From: Betaproteobacteria bacterium
GTDB taxonomy: Bacteria; Pseudomonadota; Gammaproteobacteria; Burkholderiales; Casimicrobiaceae
DNA: 57,768 nt
Reading direction: 5' to 3'
Assembly (NCBI GenBank): GCA_031376405.1
Contig: JANMDS010000163.1
Span: 1 to 57,768 of the forward strand
The translations under genes were made by a program, and so were the position numbers. This document shows positions 13,300 to 56,373 of the stretch, piece after piece (position 1 is the stretch's first letter; each line of letters begins with the position of its first letter). The notes beneath the pieces are model-generated. The model ran no database searches and was not told the DNA's origin. It saw nothing but the letters and a program-made list of their open reading frames with translations.

Positions 13300-13373
13300 G
13301 CGGGTGTAGTTCAATGGCAGAACGGAAGCTTCCCAAGCTTCATACGAGGGTTCGATTCCCTTCACCCGCTCCA
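13300..13373 (+). tRNA. tRNA-Gly (anticodon CCC)
   Basis: Hand-folded cloverleaf: acceptor GCGGGTG/CACCCGC, D arm GTTC..GAAC, anticodon stem GAAGC/GCTTC with loop TTCCCAA, T arm GAGGG-TTCGATT-CCCTT, and an encoded CCA. Confidence 0.9.
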
Positions 13374-13388
13374 AAACCCCCATTTTTC

Positions 13389-13429
13389 GGGTGATAATCC
13401 TGAAAACGCACCTAAAATGCGCCGCAGGT
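13389..13429 (-). repeat. Repeat unit, reverse orientation, 16 nt downstream of tRNA-Gly
   Basis: gggtgataatcctgaaaacgcacctaaaatgcgccgcaggt. Confidence 0.75.
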
Positions 13430-13553
13430 ATTCCATGTAGGTGCACTTCTGCGCACCGTCGCACGCCTGCAACACTGCGCGCACGCCCTACGCCTCCGCC
13501 CGAACCAAACCCACGATATCGGCTCTAAACTGAGTATTGAAAGGCGGGTTTGC

Positions 13554-24352: not shown

Positions 24353-24358
24353 CCTAAA

Positions 24359-24418
24359 ACCTGCGGCGTAAAAGCAGCACTTTTTCAACCTTATCTCCCC
24401 AGAAAAGAGCGCTTGCGT
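24359..24418. repeat. Repeat unit (forward) plus a degenerate partner arm
   Basis: acctgcggcgtaaaagcagcactttttcaaccttatctcccc, followed by agaaaagagcgcttgcgt. Confidence 0.8.
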
Positions 24419-24430
24419 ACACTCTGAAGT

Positions 24431-25325: not shown

Positions 25326-27068
25326 CTAAGCATCCGCAGTTTTCGCCGGAGCGCTTCGAGTCAGCATATCCTTTACCGCAATGTACGCAAACACAATGCC
25401 CGGCCCGATGGTGATGCCGGGTGCGGGATAGGCCGAGCCCATCATGGAGCGCATATCATTGCCTGCGGCGTAGAGGCCGGGTATTAGTTGATGGTTGGCA
25501 TCGGTCACGCGTGCATGCTCGTCGGTCGCAAAGCCTGTGGCCGCACCGATGTCGCCGGGAAATAATTTCACCGCGTAAAACGGCGCTGTTGCCAATGCGC
25601 CCAAATTTGGGTTGAGATTGCCCGCCTTGGCATCGCCAATATTGCGCTGATAGTCGGTTTCGCCCCGATGAAAATCGGGGTCGAACCCGTGTGCGGCGTA
25701 GCGGTTCATTTGTTCGACGCTTTGCTGTAATTGAGGGCCATTTATTTGGAGATAATTGGCTAAATCGGTCAAATTTGCGCCGCAGGTAAGGTAGCCATCG
25801 GCAAGATAGGCACGTAGATTGCCCGCCCCTGGGCGCACCATACCCATGCCGTATTTCTTGAGCGCTACGGCATCGCAAATGAGGTAGGCGGGCACTGCGC
25901 CCTGCACTTGCATTGCTAATCCATAGCGGTGGTACGAGGTGCTTTCGTTTACAAAACGCTTACCTTCTTTATTCACGGTAATGAAGCCAGGCTTGGCTCT
26001 GTCCATCACAAAGTGTGGGAACGCAGCGGTGCTGCCATCTGCACGTTTTCGAATCGAAACGGGTGCCCAAAATGCGTGGCTTCCGCCAGCGTGTGCGTAC
26101 ACCGCGCCGATCTCTTCGGCCAGCGTGTGGGCCGCACCCGTGTGGCCCGGTGCGGCGGGGCACCATGCGCTATCAATGCCAAGCAGCATTGCTGCGCGCT
26201 TTTCAGGGTGACGATTAAACCCACCGCTCGCGAGCACAACACCGCAGCGCACTTTGACCGTTTTTTCGTAGCCGTTTTGAACAAGCGTTATCGCATGCAC
26301 ACCGCGCGCATCCTGATGCAGTTTGCTCGGCGCGGTGTTCACGCAAAGCGCCGCGCTTTCGTGCTGTGCCAGAGAATACAAAAGCCGCGCAACGTGGGCA
26401 TTTCCCATGACCAGCCGCGTACCGCGCGGGTTGCTCAGCCGATCCCGTGCATGCCGGGCCACGATTTTCAAACAATGGCTAAATGATTTCACCGAGCCAA
26501 ACATACTGAGCAAATGCGTGATGTCTTCTCGATTGACCATCATGCCGCCCAACACCGTGAACTCTGGTATCGGTGGCCGAATGAGGGCGAATAAGCGCCC
26601 TAGCTTTCGGCCATCGAAGGGCAACGGATCGAGCGCGCGCCCACGCAAGGTTGCGCCCGCTTGGTTTGATTCGTAGTCGGGGTGCAGCGCAAACGGGCGA
26701 TACTTCACCTCACTCTTAGTTTCGATTTGTGCCAGCGCGGCGGCGCACTCTGTGATGAAGGCTTGCCGCATCTCCTCTGCGCTTTGCGCACCAACGGTGG
26801 CATTGAGGTAGGTTTGCACTTGCGCAGCCGAGTCCTCAACGCCCACTTCGTTTGCATGCGTCGAAAGCGGAATCCATGCCGTCCCTGCGGATAGCGCGGT
26901 TGTGCCGCCCACGAAAGGCGTGCTTTCAACAACCAACACGCGTAAGCCTTCGAGCGCGGCAAACACGGCCGCTGCGAGGCCAGCACCGCCCGCGCCGAGC
27001 ACCACAACATCGTAAGTATCGGGAAGCTGTTCAAGCGTTGCGGGGATTGTGGCGGCGTGGGGCATCAC
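25326..27068 (-). CDS. FAD-dependent oxidoreductase (paralogue of 22676-24352)
   Basis: 580 aa. It has YDVVVLGAGGAGLAAA and GLYAAGND motifs and starts 9 nt after the stop of the S41 peptidase gene on the same strand. Confidence 0.75.
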   Translation of the reverse strand: MMPHAATIPATLEQLPDTYDVVVLGAGGAGLAAAVFAALEGLRVLVVESTPFVGGTTALSAGTAWIPLSTHANEVGVEDSAAQVQTYLNATVGAQSAEEMRQAFITECAAALAQIETKSEVKYRPFALHPDYESNQAGATLRGRALDPLPFDGRKLGRLFALIRPPIPEFTVLGGMMVNREDITHLLSMFGSVKSFSHCLKIVARHARDRLSNPRGTRLVMGNAHVARLLYSLAQHESAALCVNTAPSKLHQDARGVHAITLVQNGYEKTVKVRCGVVLASGGFNRHPEKRAAMLLGIDSAWCPAAPGHTGAAHTLAEEIGAVYAHAGGSHAFWAPVSIRKRADGSTAAFPHFVMDRAKPGFITVNKEGKRFVNESTSYHRYGLAMQVQGAVPAYLICDAVALKKYGMGMVRPGAGNLRAYLADGYLTCGANLTDLANYLQINGPQLQQSVEQMNRYAAHGFDPDFHRGETDYQRNIGDAKAGNLNPNLGALATAPFYAVKLFPGDIGAATGFATDEHARVTDANHQLIPGLYAAGNDMRSMMGSAYPAPGITIGPGIVFAYIAVKDMLTRSAPAKTADA

Positions 27069-29091: not shown

Positions 29092-30698
29092 GAGGCAGAT
29101 TTCATCTGGGAATACCGGGGCCGTAAATCGAACACTTGGATTACAGCATCCTCCATGATGGGTGGCCCAAAACGCATCGTTAAATTGGATGCGCACGCAG
29201 CCAAATCGGGCATGGGCACACCGGGCATGCGGCGCGGATGGTGGATGGGCTTTCGCAGCACCACGAGATCGATGTGTTTTGCGCGCAAATCGTCGTCGTT
29301 GGCGAGGTACGCAAAGTTGCGCAAGGCAAGTCCTTTGCCGGGCAAAGGGTGTCCTCCGTCCCACGTGGTGCACAAGCCTTCCCCGCTCGCGGGGATGAGC
29401 TTTTGCCGAGCGATCCGCTGCCAAAGCGGATGCTCGGCATCAAAAGAGTAGAGCGACCACGGCGCTGCCGCGATGGTGACGTTCCCGTTTTTTTCGGGAA
29501 CTAGCGCTTGCCACAGCGGTGAAATCGGAACCACGCTCATGTGCTCGCGGATTGGATTTTTGTGGCGGCGCATATCGAAATGAAACCAGCTGTGGCTCGC
29601 GTATTGTTGTGGCGCGCGCAATATTTCCTGCATCGGCGTGGTCACAATCGTCGCGGCGACGAGACTGGCTGTGAGCGCGGTTGTCGCCGCGTTTGCGTGC
29701 GACTTTTCAGAAAGTCGAACAATACCTGCGGCGCAAAACAGCAGCAAAACAGGAATTATCGGCAGCAAATAGCGGGCAAACGTGAGCGGTTGCTGGACCC
29801 ACGCTGGGCGCATGAGCAAAATGGCTGCGCAGGTGAGTGCCAAACCCAACGCATACACCTGCGCAAACGGGCCGCCCGCCCGCCACACGCGCGGCGCGCC
29901 ATAGCACGCGAGCCCAAGCATCACCACGAGAATAACGTGCGAGCCCACGCCTAACCACTGGTGCGCCGCACCCCATAGTGTGGTGAGCGTGGGTAGGTCC
30001 GTTGCAGCTTTTTCTGCCAGCGCGTTGGGGTTCATGAAAAAAGGAGGACCAACGACCAACACCAACGCCACCCCACTTGCAACCGCCAGCGCAAACCAAG
30101 GCAGTGCGTGAAGCCGCGTGCGCCACAGGTTCCACAATCCGTAAACCTGGGGCGCGAACACCATCGGGGCTACGATTAAGTGCAGCCACGTCGCCAACAC
30201 CGCCACAAAAACATAGGCCACTGCAAGCGCAGCGCTTCGCCGATCCCACCATTTCAAATACAGCCAGATGGCGAGCGGCACGAGCGCAACGGTAAGCCCG
30301 TAGGGGCGGGCAATGCGCGCGTAGGTGAATAGCAAGGGCGACGTGGCCAGCAACGCACCAAACGCCAAGGCCGTATTCGCGCCCAGGCGCTTCCAAGCAA
30401 AGCCCGTTGCCACGCCTGCAAAGAGTAAACCCGCGATGAATAACGGCGCACGCATGGCCAGTTCACTCAGGCCCATCGTAGCGGCAATTGCCTTGTAGTA
30501 AAGCGTAAGCGGGATGCTGTAGTCCGCCAAACCGAACGAGGTGGCGATTTGCGTAGGGGTGCTCATCATCACCTGGTGCGCGGCGTGCCACTCGTCATCA
30601 ATCAATACTTGATCGATAAGTTGATAGCCTCTATAAAAAAACGCGAGAAGTACGATGAGCGTGATACCGAGCCCGCGTGCGCGATTGTTATTTGCCAA
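29088..30698 (-). CDS. Polytopic GT-C-like membrane glycosyltransferase (ArnT/PMT family 39-like)
   Basis: It has more than 10 hydrophobic helices and a first-loop acidic motif (LIDDEWH). The proposed start is TTG at 30698, preceded by GGGAAG at 7-nt spacing, and it overlaps the mnmE stop by 11 nt. The start is uncertain; the next ATG is at 30569. Confidence 0.6.
29724..29760 (+). repeat. Diverged repeat unit inside the GT-C membrane protein gene
   Basis: acctgcggcgcaaaacagcagcaaaacaggaattatc. The outer 16 nt and the inner TTATC are conserved, and the T-run is replaced. Confidence 0.55.
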
Positions 30699-32070
30699 TG
30701 CAGAACTTCCCAAATATTTCACCCAGCAGATCGTCGGCGGTAAATTCACCCACAATTTCGCCCAGCGCGTGGTGGGCGAGCCGCAGCTCCTCTGCGAAAA
30801 GCTCGAGCGCGGGGAACGCGAGCTGCCCGAGCGCGGCTTCAATATGAACCCGTGCGCGTTTGAGTGCTTCAACGTGCCGCGCCCGGGCAGTGAACGTACC
30901 CTCGTGCGCGCTCGCGTAGCCTACGCTTTCGGTAATGCGGGCAATCAGCGCATCAATGCCCGCGCCCGTGAGCGCGGAGACGAACACTTCATCGGTTCGC
31001 GCAGCGGGCATTTCCACAAGCTGATCGGATTTGTTGCAAACATAAATATGGGGAACGTCCGCGGGCATGCGGGCCAAAACCTGCGGCGCAATTTCGGCAC
31101 TTTTCGAGGAATATCTCCCCAAAAAAGGTGCTTTCGAAGCCTCAGCTAAGATGAGCACTACGCTCGCCCGCTCCACCGCTTGCAAGGTGCGCTCGATGCC
31201 GATACGTTCCACGGCATCGGCGGTTTCGCGAATGCCTGCGGTGTCGATGATTTCGCAAGGCAAACCATTGAGCGCGATGCGTGCCCGGACAGTATCGCGC
31301 GTAGTGCCTGCGATGGGCGTAACGATCGCTACTTCCTCACCGGCCAGCCGATTTAACAGCGAGCTCTTGCCCACGTTCGGTGCGCCTACCAACACCACGC
31401 GAATGCCATCGTGAAGCAATTGCCCCTGCTGGGCTTGCTGGAGCACTGCTTCGAGCGCTGCACGCACATCCATCGCCTGCCCACGCGCGTTTTCCGCTTG
31501 AATAAATTCCACGCCTTCTTCTTCCGGAAAATCCAGCGTGGCCTCTGTAAACATGCGCAGGCGAATGAGCTTTTCTTGCAGCGTTTTGATATGCGCAGAA
31601 AAAGCGCCCGTCAGCGCGTTCATTGCCGCTCGGGCGGCTGCTTTGGAGCCCGCATCAATTACATCGGCTACAGCCTCGGCTTGGGCTAAATCTAGCTTGC
31701 CATTGAGAAACGCACGCTGGGTAAATTCCCCCGGATTTGCCATGCGCGTATTCCCACTTACATCCGCGGCGATACAGGCTTCAACGAGCACGTGCAACAA
31801 CAGCGGGCTGCCGTGCCCTTGCAGCTCTAACGTGTCTTCGCCGGTGTACGAATGCGGCGCTGGGAACCACAATGCCAGGCCTTCGTCGAGCGTTTCGTGT
31901 TGCGGGTTTTTGAAGTTGACGAAGGTGGCTACACGCGGCGCAAGTATTTTGTGTGTGAGTGCGAGCGCGATGCTTGCCGCACTCGCACCACTCAACCGTA
32001 CAACGCCCACGCCGCCTCGACCGGGGGGCGTGGCGATGGCGACAATAGTAGAGGGTGAAGCGCTTGGCAT
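30688..32070 (-). CDS. mnmE: tRNA uridine-5-carboxymethylaminomethyl modification GTPase MnmE
   Basis: 460 aa. It has [21 protein letters not shown] at the N-terminus, a G domain ([20 protein letters not shown]) and the C-terminal CIGK tetrapeptide. Confidence 0.93.
31079..31140 (+). repeat. Repeat unit plus part of the partner arm inside the mnmE coding sequence
   Basis: acctgcggcgcaatttcggcacttttcgaggaatatctccccaaaaaaggtgctttcgaagc. It aligns along ~60 nt with the intergenic copy at 24359-24418. Confidence 0.8.
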
Positions 32071-32106
32071 TGCGCTAGTTTATGCGGCGCACCAATTTGA
32101 GCCAAA

Positions 32107-32147
32107 ATCTGCGGCGTAAAAAGTGCCCTTTTTAGAATTTATCTCCC
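32107..32147 (+). repeat. Repeat unit, forward, overlapping the stop codon of the GST gene 32139-32765
   Basis: atctgcggcgtaaaaagtgccctttttagaatttatctccc. Confidence 0.8.
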
Positions 32148-32765
32148 ACGATTAAACGCACACCATGCCTTTACTGCCGGATGCGCCCATTGCCGTTTCA
32201 CGTAAATAGCTAGGCGTGCGGGCACGCTACCACCACTGTTCGTAATGCGCAACAACATGAGCGCGAGATCGGTATCGGCGATAGACCACGCGCCGAATAG
32301 GTTGTCTGCACCTTGCGGCAACAGCGCTTCGGCGAAGGCGATCAATTTGTCCGCCGCAGCCTGCGCATCGGACGAAAGTGGCGCAGTGGCGGGCGCGAAG
32401 AAAATAGTCTCGGTTGAGCGCTCGCTGCGCAACGCGGCCATGTCCGTGCGCACAAAGCCTTGCACTTGCCGGGCACGGGCGCGGGCGTGAATGTTTTCTG
32501 GAAGCACCCGTTTCGTATCGGGAAATTGTTCCTCCAAATATTCACAAATAGCGGTGGATTCGGAAAGTGAAAAATCGCCGTGCACAAGCGTGGGAATTCG
32601 GTGCGTGAGCGATTGCTTTACGAACGCCGGTGCGTGCTGCGCGCCCGTATTTAAATCTACGGTGAGCAGTTCAAAAGGGAGTTGTTTTTCTTTCAGTATC
32701 ACGTACACCGCCAACGCCCAGGGGCTCGCGTATTGGGCATCAACGTAGAGAGTCAAGCTGCTCAT
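32139..32765 (-). CDS. Glutathione S-transferase (YfcF-like)
   Basis: 208 aa. It has LYVDAQYASPWALAVYVILKEKQLPF.. and IPTLVHGDFSLSESTAICEYLEE. Confidence 0.75.
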   Translation of the reverse strand: MSSLTLYVDAQYASPWALAVYVILKEKQLPFELLTVDLNTGAQHAPAFVKQSLTHRIPTLVHGDFSLSESTAICEYLEEQFPDTKRVLPENIHARARARQVQGFVRTDMAALRSERSTETIFFAPATAPLSSDAQAAADKLIAFAEALLPQGADNLFGAWSIADTDLALMLLRITNSGGSVPARLAIYVKRQWAHPAVKAWCAFNRGR

Positions 32766-34960: not shown

Positions 34961-36022
34961 ATGTTTAATCTATTCCGTCGCAAACCCGTTCCCCCTTCAG
35001 CCCCCGAGTCCGAAATTATCGCTACACCCGACGGTCCGGCGTTGGTAGAACCTGAAAACGTGCTCACACCTGCGGCGCAAAATGAAGCGGTCGTGCAGGT
35101 TATCTCCGAAAAAACGAGCTGGTTGAACAAGCTGAAATCGGGCTTATCGAATACGCGCGAAAAATTGGGCGGTGGTTTCGCCAAAATTTTTGCTAATAAA
35201 AAATTAGACGAAGAAACGCTCGAAACGCTCGAAACCACGCTGCTCTTGGCCGACGTAGGCGTAACCGCGACTTCACATTTGATTGCCGATTTACGCCGCC
35301 GCTACAAAGCCCAAGGCGGCGAGGCGGGCGCGCAAGCCCCGAGAGAATTGCTCTCCGAGGCGATGACTGATTTGCTCACGCCGCTTGAAGGCCCGCTAAC
35401 GGTTGCCGACGCGAAGCCATACGTAATTATGGTGGCTGGCGTAAATGGCGCGGGTAAAACCACCACCATTGGCAAGCTCGCGAAACACTTTCAAACGAGC
35501 GGCTACAGCGTGCTCCTGGCCGCAGGCGACACTTTTCGCGCCGCCGCCCGCGAGCAACTCGTGGCCTGGGGGGATCGCAACAACGTGCAAGTCATCCAGC
35601 AGCAAGGGGGTGATCCGGCAGCAGTGATGTTCGATGCCGTGCAAGCAGCCAAGGCACGGGGCATTGATGTGGTCATAGCGGACACCGCAGGCCGCCTACC
35701 CACGCAGCTGCATTTGATGGAGGAAATTAAAAAAGCTAAGCGCGTACTGGCAAAAGCGGATGCTTCGTATCCCCATGAAACGCTTTTGGTGCTCGATGGG
35801 AACACCGGTCAAAACGCCGTCGCGCAAGTCAAAGCCTTCGATGATGCGCTGCAGCTCACCGGTTTGGTGATGACCAAGCTCGACGGCTCAGCCAAAGGCG
35901 GCGTGCTTTGCGCCATCGCCAAAGAGCGTCCTGTGCCACTCAAGTTCATCGGTGTCGGCGAAGGTATTGAAGACTTGCAGCCGTTTGTTGCGCGGGAGTT
36001 TGTTGAGGCCTTGGTGGGGTAG
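34961..36022 (+). CDS. ftsY: Signal recognition particle receptor FtsY
   Basis: 353 aa with a short acidic N-region followed by an NG domain (GVNGAGKTTTIGKLA, DTAGR, TKLDG..KGG). Confidence 0.93.
   Translation: MFNLFRRKPVPPSAPESEIIATPDGPALVEPENVLTPAAQNEAVVQVISEKTSWLNKLKSGLSNTREKLGGGFAKIFANKKLDEETLETLETTLLLADVGVTATSHLIADLRRRYKAQGGEAGAQAPRELLSEAMTDLLTPLEGPLTVADAKPYVIMVAGVNGAGKTTTIGKLAKHFQTSGYSVLLAAGDTFRAAAREQLVAWGDRNNVQVIQQQGGDPAAVMFDAVQAAKARGIDVVIADTAGRLPTQLHLMEEIKKAKRVLAKADASYPHETLLVLDGNTGQNAVAQVKAFDDALQLTGLVMTKLDGSAKGGVLCAIAKERPVPLKFIGVGEGIEDLQPFVAREFVEALVG
35068..35114 (+). repeat. Repeat unit inside the ftsY coding sequence (N-terminal variable region)
   Basis: acctgcggcgcaaaatgaagcggtcgtgcaggttatctccgaaaaaa. 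The outer end and the inner TTATCTCC...AAAA are conserved. Confidence 0.65.
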
Positions 36023-37528: not shown

Positions 37529-37558
37529 CAAAAAGAAGCCCCTGAACAAGTCAGGGGC
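37529..37558 (-). terminator. Hairpin with a T-run on the minus strand, ~200 nt downstream of waaA
   Basis: GCCCCTGA-ACAAG-TCAGGGGC (37538-37558). On the minus strand it is followed by TTCTTTTTG. On the plus strand (engB side) no T-run follows. Confidence 0.55.
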
Positions 37559-37755
37559 GAAATGCCATATAAAACTGGCACCCGCACAGGGAGGAAAGCG
37601 GGAGATGATTACTCATCTACCAACAAATATACCCATTTCGTAGTGAATGAGCAAGTATTTATCGCTTTATTTCACATTGTCTAAGACGTTTTTAGTTCTA
37701 ATGAAATTTGTCTAACGCGAAAAATCCATTGCATGCATCAAAAACAATGACAATA

Positions 37756-39018: not shown

Positions 39019-39971
39019 GGCGCGCTATTTGTTAAATGGGGCGACATCGCGCGTAAAACTTCATCCACGCTCGGCGGCCGCCCGATGCCGCCCAAGTTCA
39101 CCGCGCCCGCCTCGCCGCCCCACGCCCCCGATAAGCCCGGATCAGTGGCCACATACACGCCCACCACCGGCACGCCCACCGCCGCCGCGAGATGAAGCAA
39201 ACCCGTGTCTACACCCACCACGCAGGCTGCTGCGCTCAAATCATTGGCGAGCTGGGCGAAGGGGTCACGCGGCCACACGCGGGCATGGGCGAAGCCCGCG
39301 GCAAGCCGCTGTGCGCGGGCCTCTTCAGCGGGCGAGCCCCAGGGTAGGCCCACTTCGTAACCCTTTTCGCCGCACGCCGCGATCAGCGCGCGCCAGTTCG
39401 CTTCCGGCCACAATTTATCGTCACGCGACGTTGCGTGGCAACAGACCACAAGCCGCATTTTCTGGGAGATAAGTTGCAAACCATAGCTGTTTTGCGCCGC
39501 AGGTATTTTGTAGTGCAACGCCGCTGCAAGCAGCGCGCGGTTGCGCGTTACCGCGTGTTCCGCTTTGCTCACCGCAAATTTATGTTGATACGACATACTC
39601 GCCAACGGCTCGCGCGCGCTCGCCCAATCGTAGCCGCTGCGCGGCCCGCGCGCCCGGGAAGCCAACCATGCGCTTTTCGCCAAGCCTTGCAAATCCACAA
39701 TCGCATCGTAAGGCGTTTCGCGCACCTCGTTCTTGAACTTCGCAAACGCAGCTCGCACCGGCTGCGAAAACGGCGCTTTGCGCCACTTACGCAGCTCGCA
39801 CACAATCACCCGATCAATAGCCGGATGCAACCGCGCAATCCCCGCAAAACCCGCCTCCACCAACCAATCAACCTGCGTGTCCGGTTGCGCCCGCTTCAAA
39901 TCAGCAAGCGCCGGAAAGGCGTGGATCACATCGCCCATCGACGAGGTTTTAACAATCAAAATGCGTGGCAT
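39015..39971 (-). CDS. waaC: ADP-heptose:LPS heptosyltransferase I (GT9)
   Basis: 318 aa. It has MPRILIVKTSSMGDVIHAFPAL, HATSRDDKLWPE and VGVDTGLLHLAAA. Confidence 0.85.
   Translation of the reverse strand: MPRILIVKTSSMGDVIHAFPALADLKRAQPDTQVDWLVEAGFAGIARLHPAIDRVIVCELRKWRKAPFSQPVRAAFAKFKNEVRETPYDAIVDLQGLAKSAWLASRARGPRSGYDWASAREPLASMSYQHKFAVSKAEHAVTRNRALLAAALHYKIPAAQNSYGLQLISQKMRLVVCCHATSRDDKLWPEANWRALIAACGEKGYEVGLPWGSPAEEARAQRLAAGFAHARVWPRDPFAQLANDLSAAACVVGVDTGLLHLAAAVGVPVVGVYVATDPGLSGAWGGEAGAVNLGGIGRPPSVDEVLRAMSPHLTNSAP
39464..39504 (-). repeat. Repeat unit inside the waaC coding sequence
   Basis: gggagataagttgcaaaccatagctgttttgcgccgcaggt. Confidence 0.8.
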
Positions 39972-40004
39972 GGACGCATTATGCGGGGTTCACGGCACAG
40001 AGAA

Positions 40005-40072
40005 ACCTGCGGCATAGAAATGGAATTTTTTGGGAGATATCCCCTGAGAATGGCCGTTTTTGCGCCGCAGGT
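40005..40072. repeat. Complete head-to-head repeat pair (~68-nt palindrome)
   Basis: acctgcggcatagaaatggaattttttgggagatatcccctgagaatggccgtttttgcgccgcaggt. Confidence 0.9.
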
Positions 40073-40140
40073 TTTTTGATGAAAAGACAAACCTGTAGCC
40101 TGTATTAGCCGCAACGCGGCGTAATCCGGGAGCGATTCGG

Positions 40141-43567: not shown

Positions 43568-43640
43568 GCCTGCGGCGCAGATTTTGAAGTCACGAGTTTG
43601 TCATGCGTGAGTTAGGCGAACGTGAAAGCGGTGCTTTTTT

Positions 43641-43678
43641 GGGAGATAAGTTCTAAAAAGTGCCTGTTTTACGCCGCA
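43641..43678 (-). repeat. Repeat unit, reverse orientation, interrupted by the MITE; its last 7 nt resume at 43837-43844
   Basis: gggagataagttctaaaaagtgcctgttttacgccgca | MITE | ccgcaggt. Confidence 0.8.
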
Positions 43679-43836
43679 GAGACCTCTGCACAACTGCCAT
43701 TTTTCCAAATTGAAAAGGTTTTAGGGGATGCTTTTCATCATCTGATCGAATTTGAATCGCACTCAAACGTTTCTACGCGATCAACTCCAGTTCAATTTCT
43801 GTGAAAAGTTTAGAAACCCGGTTGTGCAGAGGTCTC
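43679..43836. mobile_element. 158-bp MITE-like insertion with perfect 16-bp terminal inverted repeats and a 5-bp target duplication, inserted into a repeat unit
   Basis: The TIRs are GAGACCTCTGCACAAC (43679-43694) and GTTGTGCAGAGGTCTC (43821-43836). The flanks are ...ACGCCGCA | element | CCGCAGGTATTTT. Removing the element and one CCGCA copy restores the repeat consensus ACGCCGCAGGTATTT. Confidence 0.75.
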
Positions 43837-44189: not shown

Positions 44190-45266
44190 ATGAACAATGG
44201 GGCAATTGATTTATTCGCTGGTGCTGGGGGTCTGTCGCTCGGGCTAAAAATGTCTGATTGGGACATCAAAGCAGCGCTAGAAATCGACACTAACGCAATC
44301 AATACACATAGATTTAATATGCCCGAAGTTCGCCACATCTGTGACGATATTCGCGATGTAGATTTTGATGCTCTTAGAGGGCTTGGGCTAATCGCGGGTG
44401 GTCCTCCTTGCCAGCCCTTTTCCGTTAGCGGAAAGCGTCTTGGTACCGACGATATTCGCGACATGGTTCCTCAGTTTGTTCGTGCAATTAGAGAAGCTAG
44501 ACCGACCTCATTTTTGATGGAAAATGTAGCTGGACTTACCAGCGCAAAATTCAAGCCTTATTTAGAAGCGCAAGTAAATGAGCTTCGCGCGTTGGGCTAC
44601 TCAGTACAGTGGCAGGTGTTGAACGCAGCCGAGTACGGCGTACCGCAAAATCGTCTCCGACTCTTTGTCGTCGGGATGCCTGAGGGCGTAAAGTTTCGGT
44701 TCCCAGCACCAAGTCATGGTTTGCTAAGTAAAAAAAAGACTCCCCTCGTGTCTGTTCGACAAGCGCTTGAAGGCGTGCCGAATGATTTGCCGAATCTCGC
44801 AAAAGTGGTTTATGCAAAAAGTCCGATTCTCCGAAAAAGTCCTTTCGCAGGCATGCTACTCAACGGGCAGGGAAGACCATTGAATTTAGATGGTCAAAGT
44901 CACACAATCCCCGCTTCCGCTGGGGGCAATCGAACTCATGTTGTTGATTTATTCGGCGAGTTGACTTCCTATCATCGCAGTCTTTTAGATGGCGGAGCTC
45001 CTCGAACTGGAGAAGTACCACGTTGCCGTCGGCTGACGGTAAGAGAGTCAGCGCGGTTACAGGCGTTCCCCGACTGGTTTGAATTTAAGGGAGAACGAAG
45101 CCGTCAATACAGCCAAATCGGAAACGCCGTCCCTCCGCTGTTGGCGATGGCGGTCGGTGCGGCGATTTATCAGGCTCTTTGCACGCATCGCGGCAAAAAA
45201 TTGGATACCCGCATGTCAGCAGTCAATCTTGAAAGTGCGCTGAAAAAAACTACCTCACTTTTTTGA
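44190..45266 (+). CDS. DNA (cytosine-5)-methyltransferase
   Basis: 358 aa with all the classical motifs: I DLFAGAGGLSLG, IV GGPPCQPFS, VI ENV, VIII QNRLRLF and X QIGNAVPP. Confidence 0.92.
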   Translation: MNNGAIDLFAGAGGLSLGLKMSDWDIKAALEIDTNAINTHRFNMPEVRHICDDIRDVDFDALRGLGLIAGGPPCQPFSVSGKRLGTDDIRDMVPQFVRAIREARPTSFLMENVAGLTSAKFKPYLEAQVNELRALGYSVQWQVLNAAEYGVPQNRLRLFVVGMPEGVKFRFPAPSHGLLSKKKTPLVSVRQALEGVPNDLPNLAKVVYAKSPILRKSPFAGMLLNGQGRPLNLDGQSHTIPASAGGNRTHVVDLFGELTSYHRSLLDGGAPRTGEVPRCRRLTVRESARLQAFPDWFEFKGERSRQYSQIGNAVPPLLAMAVGAAIYQALCTHRGKKLDTRMSAVNLESALKKTTSLF

Positions 45267-45311
45267 CCACGCATAAGAAACTTGTGCCTCAGTCAATGCT
45301 CAGTTCGACGA

Positions 45312-46475
45312 CTAGGCTGTGCCAATATTCCCGACCGCAGTGCTCCAATCCCATCTATGCTTTGGATCTGCCCGTTGGGTATCAAGCGCCTCACCCACGG
45401 AAACAAGCAATGATTTCCTTCCTTCTTCCCCAAGTAGGACGCAGCAATGCTCTAGGAGTTCGAGGGCACCAACAATATAGATATTTAGTCCGAGCGAGAA
45501 TTGATTATTTACTATTTTTTGAATTGCCTCGATATCAGAATATAGCGGGCTAGTTCGCGTGGGGCGGTGGACAAAAAAAAGCAGCTCTGTCACGTTTGAG
45601 AGCCGCGCTTTCCGAACGCTACTCTCCATTTCGGCCGATGTCAATTCTCGATCTTTAACCTCCAAAGTGAGAAGATTTTTTCCATCGAGAACGCACTCGA
45701 TGTCACCTGCGCTAAGCGAGGCGGAGTCCGCCGCATTTACGTGACCCGAAGCAATTTCGCCGAGACTAAGCCCCCGCTTTTTGAGTGCAATAAGCAATCC
45801 GTATGCGACCGCCTGTAATCGTGCTCCGCCGGAAGACTTTTTAAGATATTCCTCGATACAACCAACAGTATTTATCAAACTTACTCTTTGTGGAATCGCG
45901 TAATCGAACTTTTTCCCAACCAGATAGATCCTTAGCTGCGCCAACACAATTTTTAGACTTTCCGTAACGTCTTCCGTGGAGGTAGCCGCCTGCGCATGCT
46001 CTAGTACCGTCAATACCGCATCAAAGACTACCGGCTTCCTTCGACCTTTTCGCATCGATGCATCGAATCTAGGATTGCGAAAGATATTATTGACATAAGG
46101 GTCTTCAGAGTCGCCGAGCGGCGCGCCAATGCTCTTGTTCCAAACTACTACGACCCGTTTCGCAAACTCTCTCGGTTCCCAGCTGCCGGTCTGACCAGCC
46201 CCTTTTTGCAAGCAAAGTGCGTCTAGGTTAAAGTTCGCGACTTTTCCTGCAATTTGGTTGACGATGGTGTATTTCCACCCAATTTCGCTTTGGTCAAACA
46301 CACTGCGAATCGTTTCCGAAAGTTCATTAGTCGGTAGCCGATCAATAGGCGTTGCCTCTATTTCGGACCAAGCAGAATATAGAATCGACAGCGCATTTTG
46401 TTCGAAGGACTGCTTGTCCGAAGGTGAATCTGAACTCTTGCTCTTCGCCATACCTGTTTTCTTCCACGTTGACAT
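45312..46475 (-). CDS. Putative type II restriction endonuclease (PD-(D/E)xK candidate), convergent with the methyltransferase
   Basis: 387 aa on AT-rich DNA. A candidate catalytic motif is GD-IECVLDGKNLLTL-EVK (D..ExK). It lies tail-to-tail with the m5C MTase across a 45-nt gap. The family was not identified. Confidence 0.55.
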   Translation of the reverse strand: MSTWKKTGMAKSKSSDSPSDKQSFEQNALSILYSAWSEIEATPIDRLPTNELSETIRSVFDQSEIGWKYTIVNQIAGKVANFNLDALCLQKGAGQTGSWEPREFAKRVVVVWNKSIGAPLGDSEDPYVNNIFRNPRFDASMRKGRRKPVVFDAVLTVLEHAQAATSTEDVTESLKIVLAQLRIYLVGKKFDYAIPQRVSLINTVGCIEEYLKKSSGGARLQAVAYGLLIALKKRGLSLGEIASGHVNAADSASLSAGDIECVLDGKNLLTLEVKDRELTSAEMESSVRKARLSNVTELLFFVHRPTRTSPLYSDIEAIQKIVNNQFSLGLNIYIVGALELLEHCCVLLGEEGRKSLLVSVGEALDTQRADPKHRWDWSTAVGNIGTA

Positions 46476-46628
46476 TCAAATCCGTCAAGCAACAACAAAC
46501 TCGACCAGTGTAGCCGGAAGCAGCGAAGCGTTTTCCGAGTCTTACTACTTCCGAGCTTCGCTGACTAATACCGATGGCGCAGCCTGGAGAATTACATGTG
46601 TGCCATGCAGTGGTTTTAAGGGAAATTC

Positions 46629-46693
46629 AGGGTCTAAAAAATGCGGTTTTTGAGGAGATAAGTTTTAAAAAGTGCCGTTTTTACGCCGCAGGT
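46629..46693. repeat. Head-to-head repeat pair with a degenerate left outer end, at the right edge of the R-M islet
   Basis: agggtctaaaaaatgcggtttttgaggagataagttttaaaaagtgccgtttttacgccgcaggt. Confidence 0.85.
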
Positions 46694-46778
46694 TTTTTCG
46701 CTTTTTGTGCATCGCGCACAATCAAATGTGTTCCCGTGTACAGTGTGCGTTGGTAGCAAATCGTTTTAGGAGCACATC

Positions 46779-56277: not shown

Positions 56278-56287
56278 TTCTCAAAAT

Positions 56288-56355
56288 ACCTGCGGCGCAA
56301 AACCCGCATTTTTTGGGAGATATCATCCAGAAACTGTCTTTTTTACGCCGCAGGT
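56288..56355. repeat. Complete head-to-head repeat pair
   Basis: acctgcggcgcaaaacccgcattttttgggagatatcatccagaaactgtcttttttacgccgcaggt. Confidence 0.9.
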
Positions 56356-56373
56356 ATTGGGCGCAAAACGCGC

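Follow-up and report, generated by a model that had tools for sequence, protein, structure and literature searches.

An in-frame repeat copy in mnmE as a probable genic member of a DNA-uptake-sequence-like family in a betaproteobacterial clade

How does a copy of a densely scattered repeat come to lie in frame within a conserved housekeeping gene? The question is posed by positions 1 to 57,768 of contig JANMDS010000163.1 from a betaproteobacterium, a stretch of 57.8 kb that we analyzed as a whole and refer to as the window. Here mnmE, the gene for a tRNA-modification GTPase, carries one copy of the repeat in the part that encodes the G domain. A first-pass annotation had taken this copy for a selfish palindromic element residing in frame, in the manner of the Rickettsia palindromic elements (RPEs). 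We find that most of the copy originated in place, that it is maintained at the DNA level and tracks the motif dialect of each genome, and that only a 24-nt part of it was added to the gene. The mnmE segment is probably a genic member of a lineage-specific, genome-saturating family resembling DNA uptake sequences, rather than a transposed element.

The mnmE copy and its orthologues

The window has a G+C content of 55% and is densely populated by a repeat family whose 10-mer ACCTGCGGCG occurs 25 times against an expectation of ∼0.1, with no strand bias (12 copies on the plus strand and 13 on the minus strand). A longer pattern of the family gives 13 matches, compared with none in 100 shuffles. 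The core spans ∼15 nt, (A/T)ACCTGCGGCGCA, and is followed on one side by A/T tracts at a spacing of ∼10.5 nt. In the sublineage of the window there is an additional central TTATCTCCCC motif and in many copies a second arm in inverted orientation, the unit then being ∼70 nt long. The consensus of 17 intergenic copies reads aAAaACCTGCGGCGtAAAAaCgGCa.TTTTT.ga..TTATCTCCC.AAAAA..cc..tTTTt, and the centers of its A/T tracts fall near +14, +25, +35, +45 and +55 at intervals of about one helical turn. The majority of copies are single-armed and form no hairpin; the few that have a second inverted core fold strongly.

The identity of the host gene is clear. Its product matches the E. coli MnmE structure 9hip with E = 4e-132, its homologues have the TrmE_N, MMR_HSR1 and MnmE_helical domains, and the list of open reading frames (ORFs) confirms the intact frame that had been annotated (Table 1). 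From 19 copies that are clearly intergenic we derived an nhmmer profile to which the mnmE copy did not contribute. This profile matches the gene at 31076-31142 on the plus strand over model positions 2-68 of 80 (51.7 bits, E = 2.9e-15), a score within the range of ordinary intergenic copies. The plus-strand sequence at 31079-31140 is as the first-pass annotation had quoted it, and the profile match bears out its assignment to the family. The copy consists of a core, an A/T tract, a spacer, a T tract, TATCTCCCC, an A tract, a spacer, a T tract and a second core that is degenerate and reaches to ∼31147 (AGCCTCAGCT compared with CGCCGCAGGT). Its central motif is read through as GGG AGA TAT, the consensus T being replaced by A, a substitution that removes a would-be in-frame stop (TAA). 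The copy is not, as had been supposed, appreciably palindromic: its folding is at the level of shuffled sequence (single-strand z = -0.28), and on this ground we rejected hairpin formation. No target-site duplication is recognizable at the copy, and a promoter and terminator scan found no such site there.

We compared the MnmE of the window with its relatives P0001 (90% identity, 460 aa), P0002-P0007 (82-84%, or ∼85% when the loop is masked; 451-454 aa) and P0008-P0012 (67-69%). The mnmE DNA loci of the close relatives, including L081 for P0001, were fetched individually; a scan of genome contigs for MnmE gave at most 56% identity among the matches listed. In the protein alignment, eight extra residues are found only in the window and P0001/L081. 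The corresponding 24 nt, whose boundaries are good to a few nucleotides, are absent from five ∼85% orthologues as well as from the outgroups L087, L213 and L088. The peptide encoded by the core, APQVLAR(M/V/L)P, is common to all of P0001-P0007, and L082, L084, L085 and L086 have (A/T)ACCTGCGGCGCA at the same codons, GCG CCG CAG GT(T/A), in genes whose loop length equals that of the three outgroups (within three residues). The outgroups have no copy at the focal site, and the A-P-x-V peptide is ancestral in this loop and helix, appearing in outgroup proteins as APLV, APKV and APNV.

The short-loop genes are recognized by the profile of window intergenic copies: L082, L084 and L086 score 33.0, 32.6 and 25.3 bits over positions 2-51/57 and L085 scores 17.2 bits, with long-loop L081 reaching 55.8 bits at the same place. 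Removal of the 24 nt in silico lowers the family score of the window copy from 51.7 to 27.7 bits. A neighbor-joining tree with the loop masked has the arrangement (window, P0001); (P0007, (P0005, (P0006, (P0002, P0004)))); P0003, with P0008-P0012 outside, and its outgroups are short-looped save for an unrelated insertion in L212. Because the window and P0001 stand beside short-loop lineages in this tree, a single gain of the 24 nt is the most parsimonious history. Insertion of a whole element would need a simultaneous deletion of 45 nt, which the shared short-loop copies contradict. Some 45 nt of the copy thus arose or were overwritten in place, and the 24 nt were added later. The window and P0001 differ at 5 of the 22 residues of the segment, and the DNA motif elements stay conserved between them. 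We also considered a tandem duplication of adjacent sequence as the source of the 24 nt and rejected it, since the only similarity is a short TCGAAA-GC that is explained by the arm symmetry of the family.

The RPE-style insertion of the first-pass annotation therefore stands in part. Family-derived DNA did lengthen the protein by eight codons in one sublineage, but the entry of a whole selfish palindromic element into the gene is not supported, because the core and first arm occupy the same codons in ∼85% orthologues with a loop of outgroup length. The alignment shows an insertion for the 24 nt only, the rest of the copy being in place with no change in length. The annotation had looked to orthologues from genomes that lack the family for a decision, and the outcome is intermediate: family-free genomes (L088) lack the segment, and family-bearing genomes carry the site without the insertion.

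In an AlphaFold2 model based on a 19-sequence alignment (mean pLDDT 72.5), the added residues fall within a low-confidence loop at 311-328, and the 24-nt addition is thus predicted to encode part of a surface loop between a strand and a helix. The A-P-Q-V codons lead into the short helix that precedes G4. The segment lies just upstream of NKSD in the variable loop of the G domain, in agreement with its earlier placement in a variable stretch upstream of that motif. The loop is five residues longer in the window MnmE than in E. coli MnmE. The MnmE of L212 (10001-11392) has an independent and unrelated insertion of nine residues (about DAVDPSNAS) in the same strand-to-helix loop, which marks the loop as a general hot spot for indels.

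Codon constraint and motif dialects

At the core, mnmE is conserved beyond what the protein requires. Among the window, L082, L084, L085 and L086, 17.8% of the amino-acid-identical columns of mnmE are also codon-identical, and the core codons GCG CCG CAG are identical in all five sequences. In a gene for an FAD-dependent oxidoreductase that also has an in-frame copy, the core codons are identical at 4/4 positions against a background of 28.9%. Nor is the motif forced by the peptide. The core in a PMT_2-type membrane glycosyltransferase gene lies at the same codons in the window, L082, L084 and L086, whereas L085 encodes the same CAAGI without the core; at a site that is (I/L)PAAQ with the core in L085 and L087, the window has MPAAR.

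The flanks of the core fall into dialects. The window, L082, L084 and L086 use GCGCAAAA...TTTTT, and L085 and L087 use GCGCAG(A/T)TTT. The flanks of the mnmE copies score best with matrices from the same dialect group, from which the focal copy was left out: the window copy reaches 40 bits on its own matrix compared with 4-26 bits on the others, and the L085 copy has a positive score only with L087-type matrices. A tandem array at L209 9033-9416, with a period of ∼108 nt, is made of units that begin GCGATACCTGCGGCGCAGTTTG, a CAG-type flank. Other copies in the L209 genome use the CAAAA flank, so two flank dialects coexist in one genome.

The core itself also varies between genomes, each of which was sampled over 12-58 kb, much of it near the replication origin. 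The ACCTGCGGCG dialect belongs to the window clade and to L087/L210, with 25 occurrences in the window and 3-17 per locus of 12-21 kb (e.g. 16, 14 and 17). The dialect GTACCTTCGGCGCA (ACCTTCGGCG) is found in L212 only (10 in 16.4 kb), and GTACCTACGCCGCAA (ACCTACGCCG) is found in L213 (7 in 18.7 kb), with chance singletons in L084 and L088. Such singletons aside, no genome uses more than one of the three core dialects. In L088 no 10-mer is over-represented, and the ACCTGCGGCG and ACCTTCGGCG cores are both absent.

Encoded residues at orthologous codons of mnmE and yidC change with the dialect. At the focal mnmE site, ACCTGCGGCG genomes have GCG CCG CAG GT (APQV), and L212, which is 70% identical in MnmE, carries the core dialect of its own genome at these codons as GCG CCG AAG GTA (APKV). 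At the N-terminus of mnmE, L085 and L087 have TGC GCC GCA GGT AT (CAAGI) and L212 has TGC GCC GAA GGT ACA (CAEGT); at a third site in the gene, the (I/L)PAAQ of L085 and L087 corresponds to VPTPQ in L213. The yidC site reads VPAAQ in L087, VPSAQ in L212 and VPTPQ in L213. In waaC, a Gln codon is CAA in genomes of the CAAAA dialect and CAG in L210, which has the CAG flank dialect.

Core density in nine related loci is 0.28-0.81 per kb. In the assembly represented by the two contigs L087 and L210, 16 of the 31 cores are genic, with cores in dnaA, yidC, mnmE (twice), waaC and kdtA as well as in genes for an acyl-CoA dehydrogenase and a MarR regulator. The intergenic copies of L085, L087, L209, L212 and L213 are often perfect inverted pairs located right after genes, and their hairpins are strong (z = -10.6 at L085 4383-4442; -39.9 kcal/mol and z = -13.8 at L209 6975-7052). 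As a control, 80 mnmE loci of other bacteria (870 kb) contained two cores, which is the chance expectation. A metagenome scan for ATACCTGCGGCGCA gave a background of 120 loci with chance singletons, and the seven loci with two cores were all unrelated high-GC sequences. The nearest named homologues of AtpD and MnmE come from metagenome-assembled genomes labeled Rhodocyclaceae, Burkholderiales, Casimicrobiaceae or Betaproteobacteria. A literature search with the core string returned nothing relevant, and Rfam gave no RNA family at any repeat copy.

Other copies, and how the family may be maintained

Several further genes of the window contain copies (Table 1), and those in waaC, the FAD-oxidoreductase gene and the PMT_2-type gene cause no change in protein length relative to orthologues. 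The waaC copy, in a gene whose product has Pfam Glyco_transf_9 at residues 77-295, contains no insertion when homologues of as little as 50% identity are compared, a few of them being one residue shorter at the site. The FAD-oxidoreductase copy has no indel relative to the L084 and L086 orthologues, and its residues track the central motif of each genome. The apparent L210 orthologue of the TctC-family gene carries its own dialect near the corresponding N-terminal position.

Intergenic copies are found in convergent, divergent and tandem contexts, several of them 7-16 nt past a stop codon. The single-arm copy with which the mnmE segment was first compared has orthologous copies in L082, L084 and L086 and forms no hairpin (24355-24430, z = 0.06). 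The two-arm unit between convergent genes folds with -19.3 kcal/mol (56284-56360, z = -5.7). Upstream of mnmE, the GST gene (32139-32765, minus strand) ends inside a copy: the central TTATCTCCC motif of the family, read as its reverse complement, provides GGG AGA TAA, the final two codons of the gene and its stop.

Table 1. Positions of mnmE, its repeat copy, the modeled MnmE loop and other family copies (window coordinates unless a residue range or another locus is given)
Feature	Position	Strand	Details
mnmE (tRNA-modification GTPase)	30688..32070	-	460 aa, intact ORF
Repeat-family copy in mnmE	31076..31147	+	antisense to gene; nhmmer 51.7 bits for 31076-31142
Core ACCTGCGGCG in mnmE	31079..31088	+	coding strand 31078-31089 = GCG CCG CAG GTT = A-P-Q-V
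24-nt (8-codon) lineage-specific addition CTCCCCAAAAAAGGTGCTTTCGAA	31115..31138	+	encodes roughly SKAPFLGR
MnmE strand	residues 304-310		VVLILAE; AlphaFold2 model
MnmE irregular segment	residues 311-328		pLDDT below 50 at 316-325; AlphaFold2 model
MnmE helix	residues 329-334		PQVLAR; AlphaFold2 model
MnmE strand directly before NKSD	residues 341-346		HIYVCN; AlphaFold2 model
Single-arm intergenic copy (first comparison copy)	24356..24424	+	56.7 bits; 7 nt after stop codon
Two-arm palindromic unit, convergent genes	56282..56359	both	nhmmer 63.5 + 57.5 bits
Two-arm palindromic unit, divergent intergenic region	40001..40078		hairpin -17.5 kcal/mol, z = -4.9
Copy between mnmE and upstream GST gene	32104..32166	+	nhmmer 44.2 bits
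waaC (heptosyltransferase I), extended in-frame copy	39441..39508	-	37.9 bits; encodes IPAAQNSYGLQLISQKMR
FAD-dependent oxidoreductase gene, in-frame copy	25736..25788	-	18.6 bits; encodes TCGANLTDLANYLQING (feature list: LTCGANLTDLANYLQING)
PMT_2-type membrane glycosyltransferase gene, core + A tract	29721..29739	+	14.5 bits; encodes FCAAGI
ftsY N-terminal region, copy	35068..35124	+	22.6 bits; Pfam SRP54_N from residue 69
TctC-family gene, core + first arm in signal-peptide codons	42648..42680	-	24.2 bits
Inverted pairs downstream of genes	L085 4387/4426; L209 6979/7037; L213 9932/9955; window 56282-56359

Some neighboring features deserve mention in their own right. Up to 185 nt at the 3' end of mnmE (30688-30872) also fall within the longest ORF of the PMT_2-type gene downstream; the overlaps called in relatives are 10-83 nt, which suggests that the true start of the PMT_2-type gene is probably further downstream. 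The 3' end of tRNA-Gly(CCC) (13300-13373) is overlapped by a repeat copy at 13368-13432 on the minus strand. Between engB and kdtA, 37530-37605 on the minus strand matches the Rfam model of the Burkholderia anti-hemB sRNA and scores 57 bits against a gathering threshold of 49.5. A type II restriction-modification pair at 44190-46475, with a C5 cytosine methylase and a SacI-like endonuclease, has a GC3 of 0.44-0.48 compared with ∼0.65 elsewhere and is probably recently acquired DNA. There is no core inside the pair, which is flanked by copies at 43622-43679 and 46626-46696, but most genes of the window lineage are coreless anyway. L209 3402-4118, in the genome to which both L086 and L209 belong, encodes a product with a TfoX_C domain in the precomputed Pfam list. 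TfoX/Sxy proteins are competence regulators.

A strand-symmetric core, phased A/T tracts, high density, a genic share without indels, terminator-like pairs and exclusive dialects together make up the signature of a DNA uptake sequence (DUS). We tentatively propose that this uncultured betaproteobacterial clade may possess an unrecognized uptake-sequence system. Its architecture would be that of the uptake signal sequence (USS), it would have at least three core dialects that rewrite codons of mnmE, yidC and waaC, and in one sublineage its ∼70-nt unit would be able to lengthen a conserved GTPase by whole codons. In mnmE, the core and first arm arose in place at the A-P-x-V codons with no change in length, in or before the common ancestor of the ∼85%-identity clade, and have been kept since then at the DNA level, synonymous sites included. 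The window/P0001 sublineage then gained 24 nt of family-consensus sequence, perhaps as a short recombination or template-switch patch from a full-length unit; this gain completed the extended unit and left the frame open. Behind both steps there may be a motif-specific drive that makes, keeps and homogenizes copies, those in essential genes included. In the likeliest form of such a drive, competence machinery would prefer motif-bearing DNA, homologous recombination would follow and purifying selection on the protein would act as a filter; biased uptake with recombination would then be the force that shapes the family, whose function in uptake is suggested by analogy with the known systems.

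Several points weigh against this proposal. The sampling of each genome is partial, and genome-wide saturation is therefore an extrapolation. The dialects are tracked across few independent lineages (three core dialects and about three flank dialects). Copies of the window lineage are mostly intergenic, with ∼7 of 25 genic, and their unit of 50-70 nt, with its distinct TTATCTCCCC center, is much longer than known uptake sequences. A templated addition of 24 nt is not predicted by a drive that acts through point mutations and would call for an extra step of recombination or template switching, and no candidate donor in the window does better than 75% identity. No competence gene is present in the window.

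Some of these points suit a family of the repetitive extragenic palindromic (REP) or REPIN type, kept by a transposase of its own or through ectopic gene conversion and with no role in uptake. Short conversion tracts from intergenic copies would then overwrite similar coding sequence, and genome-specific masters would be seen as dialects. The long and mostly intergenic units of the window lineage, some of them perfect palindromes, the homogenization of orthologous intergenic and genic copies towards the consensus of each genome and the templated look of the 24-nt addition are all in keeping with this explanation, and for the window sublineage a REPIN-like family homogenized by gene conversion is a serious rival. 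For the family as a whole we consider it unlikely. Single units are non-palindromic, and about half of the L087/L210 cores are bare genic motifs of 15-20 nt, too short for homology-dependent conversion and unlike extragenic REPs, so that the bare 15-nt genic cores of the relatives are left unexplained. A motif-specific drive accounts better for point dialects of the core that go together with corresponding amino-acid changes at many unrelated sites. No gene for a Y1-transposase (RAYT) was seen in the sampled DNA, although this is weak evidence given the partial sampling. The first-pass idea of a ∼70-nt palindromic mobile element that transposed in frame into mnmE, its peptide being tolerated, has very little probability left, as the orthologue comparison largely refutes it. 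The extra DNA is 24 nt and not ∼70, short-loop orthologues have the core and first arm at matching codons, as does L212 in another dialect, there is neither a recognizable target-site duplication nor a hairpin, the waaC, FAD-oxidoreductase and PMT_2-type copies stand without indels, and the genes of relatives contain many bare 15-nt cores. These results outweigh the match of the mnmE copy to the family model over 67 positions with a degenerate second arm, the existence of two-arm intergenic units with terminal inverted repeats and strong hairpins, the eight additional residues in a surface loop, and the documented in-frame fusions of RPEs as transposable elements of the miniature inverted-repeat kind (MITEs; PMC10969869).

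The copies could also be binding sites of a nucleoid-associated, regulatory or self-marking protein, each of them, including the mnmE site, being individually selected. We regard this as improbable in spite of the strong conservation of the core, the A/T phasing of the kind seen in bent DNA and the frequent positions at gene ends, because the sites occur about once per 1.3-3 kb in both orientations, in unrelated housekeeping genes and in all reading frames, and come and go among close relatives where the peptide stays the same. Polar motifs of the Chi or KOPS type were rejected, since the strands show no skew; nor is there a promoter or terminator signal at the mnmE copy. A resemblance due to chance, or one that is purely ancestral and dictated by the amino-acid sequence of MnmE, has a negligible probability. 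The ancestral A-P-x-V makes part of the core cheap to reach, but the match to an independent profile (E = 3e-15), the conservation of synonymous sites, the agreement of the inserted 24 nt with the consensus and the tracking of each genome's dialect by the mnmE site refute it. The uptake-sequence-like family thus remains our preferred account of the mnmE segment.

Comparison with known repeats and uptake sequences

The family shares with RPEs the in-frame translation of repeat sequence within a conserved housekeeping protein, in a surface-exposed and variable segment. RPEs measure ∼100-150 bp and are added as whole elements, whereas here 24 of ∼70 nt are extra and the rest is in place, and the other genic copies of the family add nothing. 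A repeat inside a gene need not be a transposed element, which is a warning for annotation. Here a putative DNA-level drive alters residues of housekeeping proteins at orthologous sites (Q/K, A/E, AA/SA/TP) and has once added eight residues. With REPs and REPINs the family has in common an abundance of short repeats by gene ends, the occurrence of singlets and inverted doublets and the genome-specific masters, but its single unit is no palindrome, many of its copies are genic and no RAYT is seen in the partly sampled DNA.

Uptake sequences are known only from the Neisseriaceae and Pasteurellaceae (10.1101/2025.10.24.684340), and whether the signals of these two families are convergent or related is still debated. 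If the present proposal is correct, a third lineage with core dialects would offer an independent test of the co-evolution of uptake signal and receptor, and the three cores ACCTGCGGCG, ACCTTCGGCG and ACCTACGCCG would provide a computational handle on any pilin or receptor co-varying with them. The H. influenzae USS has a 9-bp core with a critical GCGG and two helically phased T tracts (PMC3458573), and ORFs contain 34-65% of uptake sequences, with a preference for positions of low conservation (PMC2817400). Like the Pasteurellaceae USS (H. influenzae AAGTGCGGT), the family has a short GC-rich core with T-GCGG and one-sided A/T tracts about one helical turn apart. It also resembles the USS in a frequency of about one copy per 1-3 kb on both strands, in its frequent occurrence at variable positions of ORFs, in the pairs that form terminator-like hairpins and in the variants between related taxa (PMC3458573, PMC2817400). 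It differs in its uncultured betaproteobacterial host, in a longer core (∼15 nt) of different sequence, in the two dialects that alter the GCGG positions (TCGG and ACGC), and in the 50-70-nt unit of the window lineage, which has a TTATCTCCCC center and added eight codons to a gene.

In the Neisseriaceae, the DUS occurs in dialects and in terminator pairs (PMC3630211; 10.1101/2025.10.24.684340), and its 10-mer has an invariant CTG at positions 6-8 and an A at position 10 (PMC3630211). The family differs from the DUS in sequence save for CCTG and in the extended A/T tracts of its flanks; CTG, invariant in the DUS, is missing from the ACCTTCGGCG and ACCTACGCCG dialects, and the nearest named homologues do not place the lineage in the Neisseriaceae. 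The family core presumably resembles the Eikenella dialect TACCTG. As with the DUS, the dialects are genome-specific, are distinguished by single bases of the core and track phylogeny, inverted pairs stand just after genes, genic copies constrain the encoded residues, and the main dialect contains CTG. An over-represented core, the absence of strand bias, a share of copies in ORFs without indels, inverted pairs and exclusive dialects, which are among the features by which DUS and USS are recognized, are all found in this family over the parts of each genome that were sampled.

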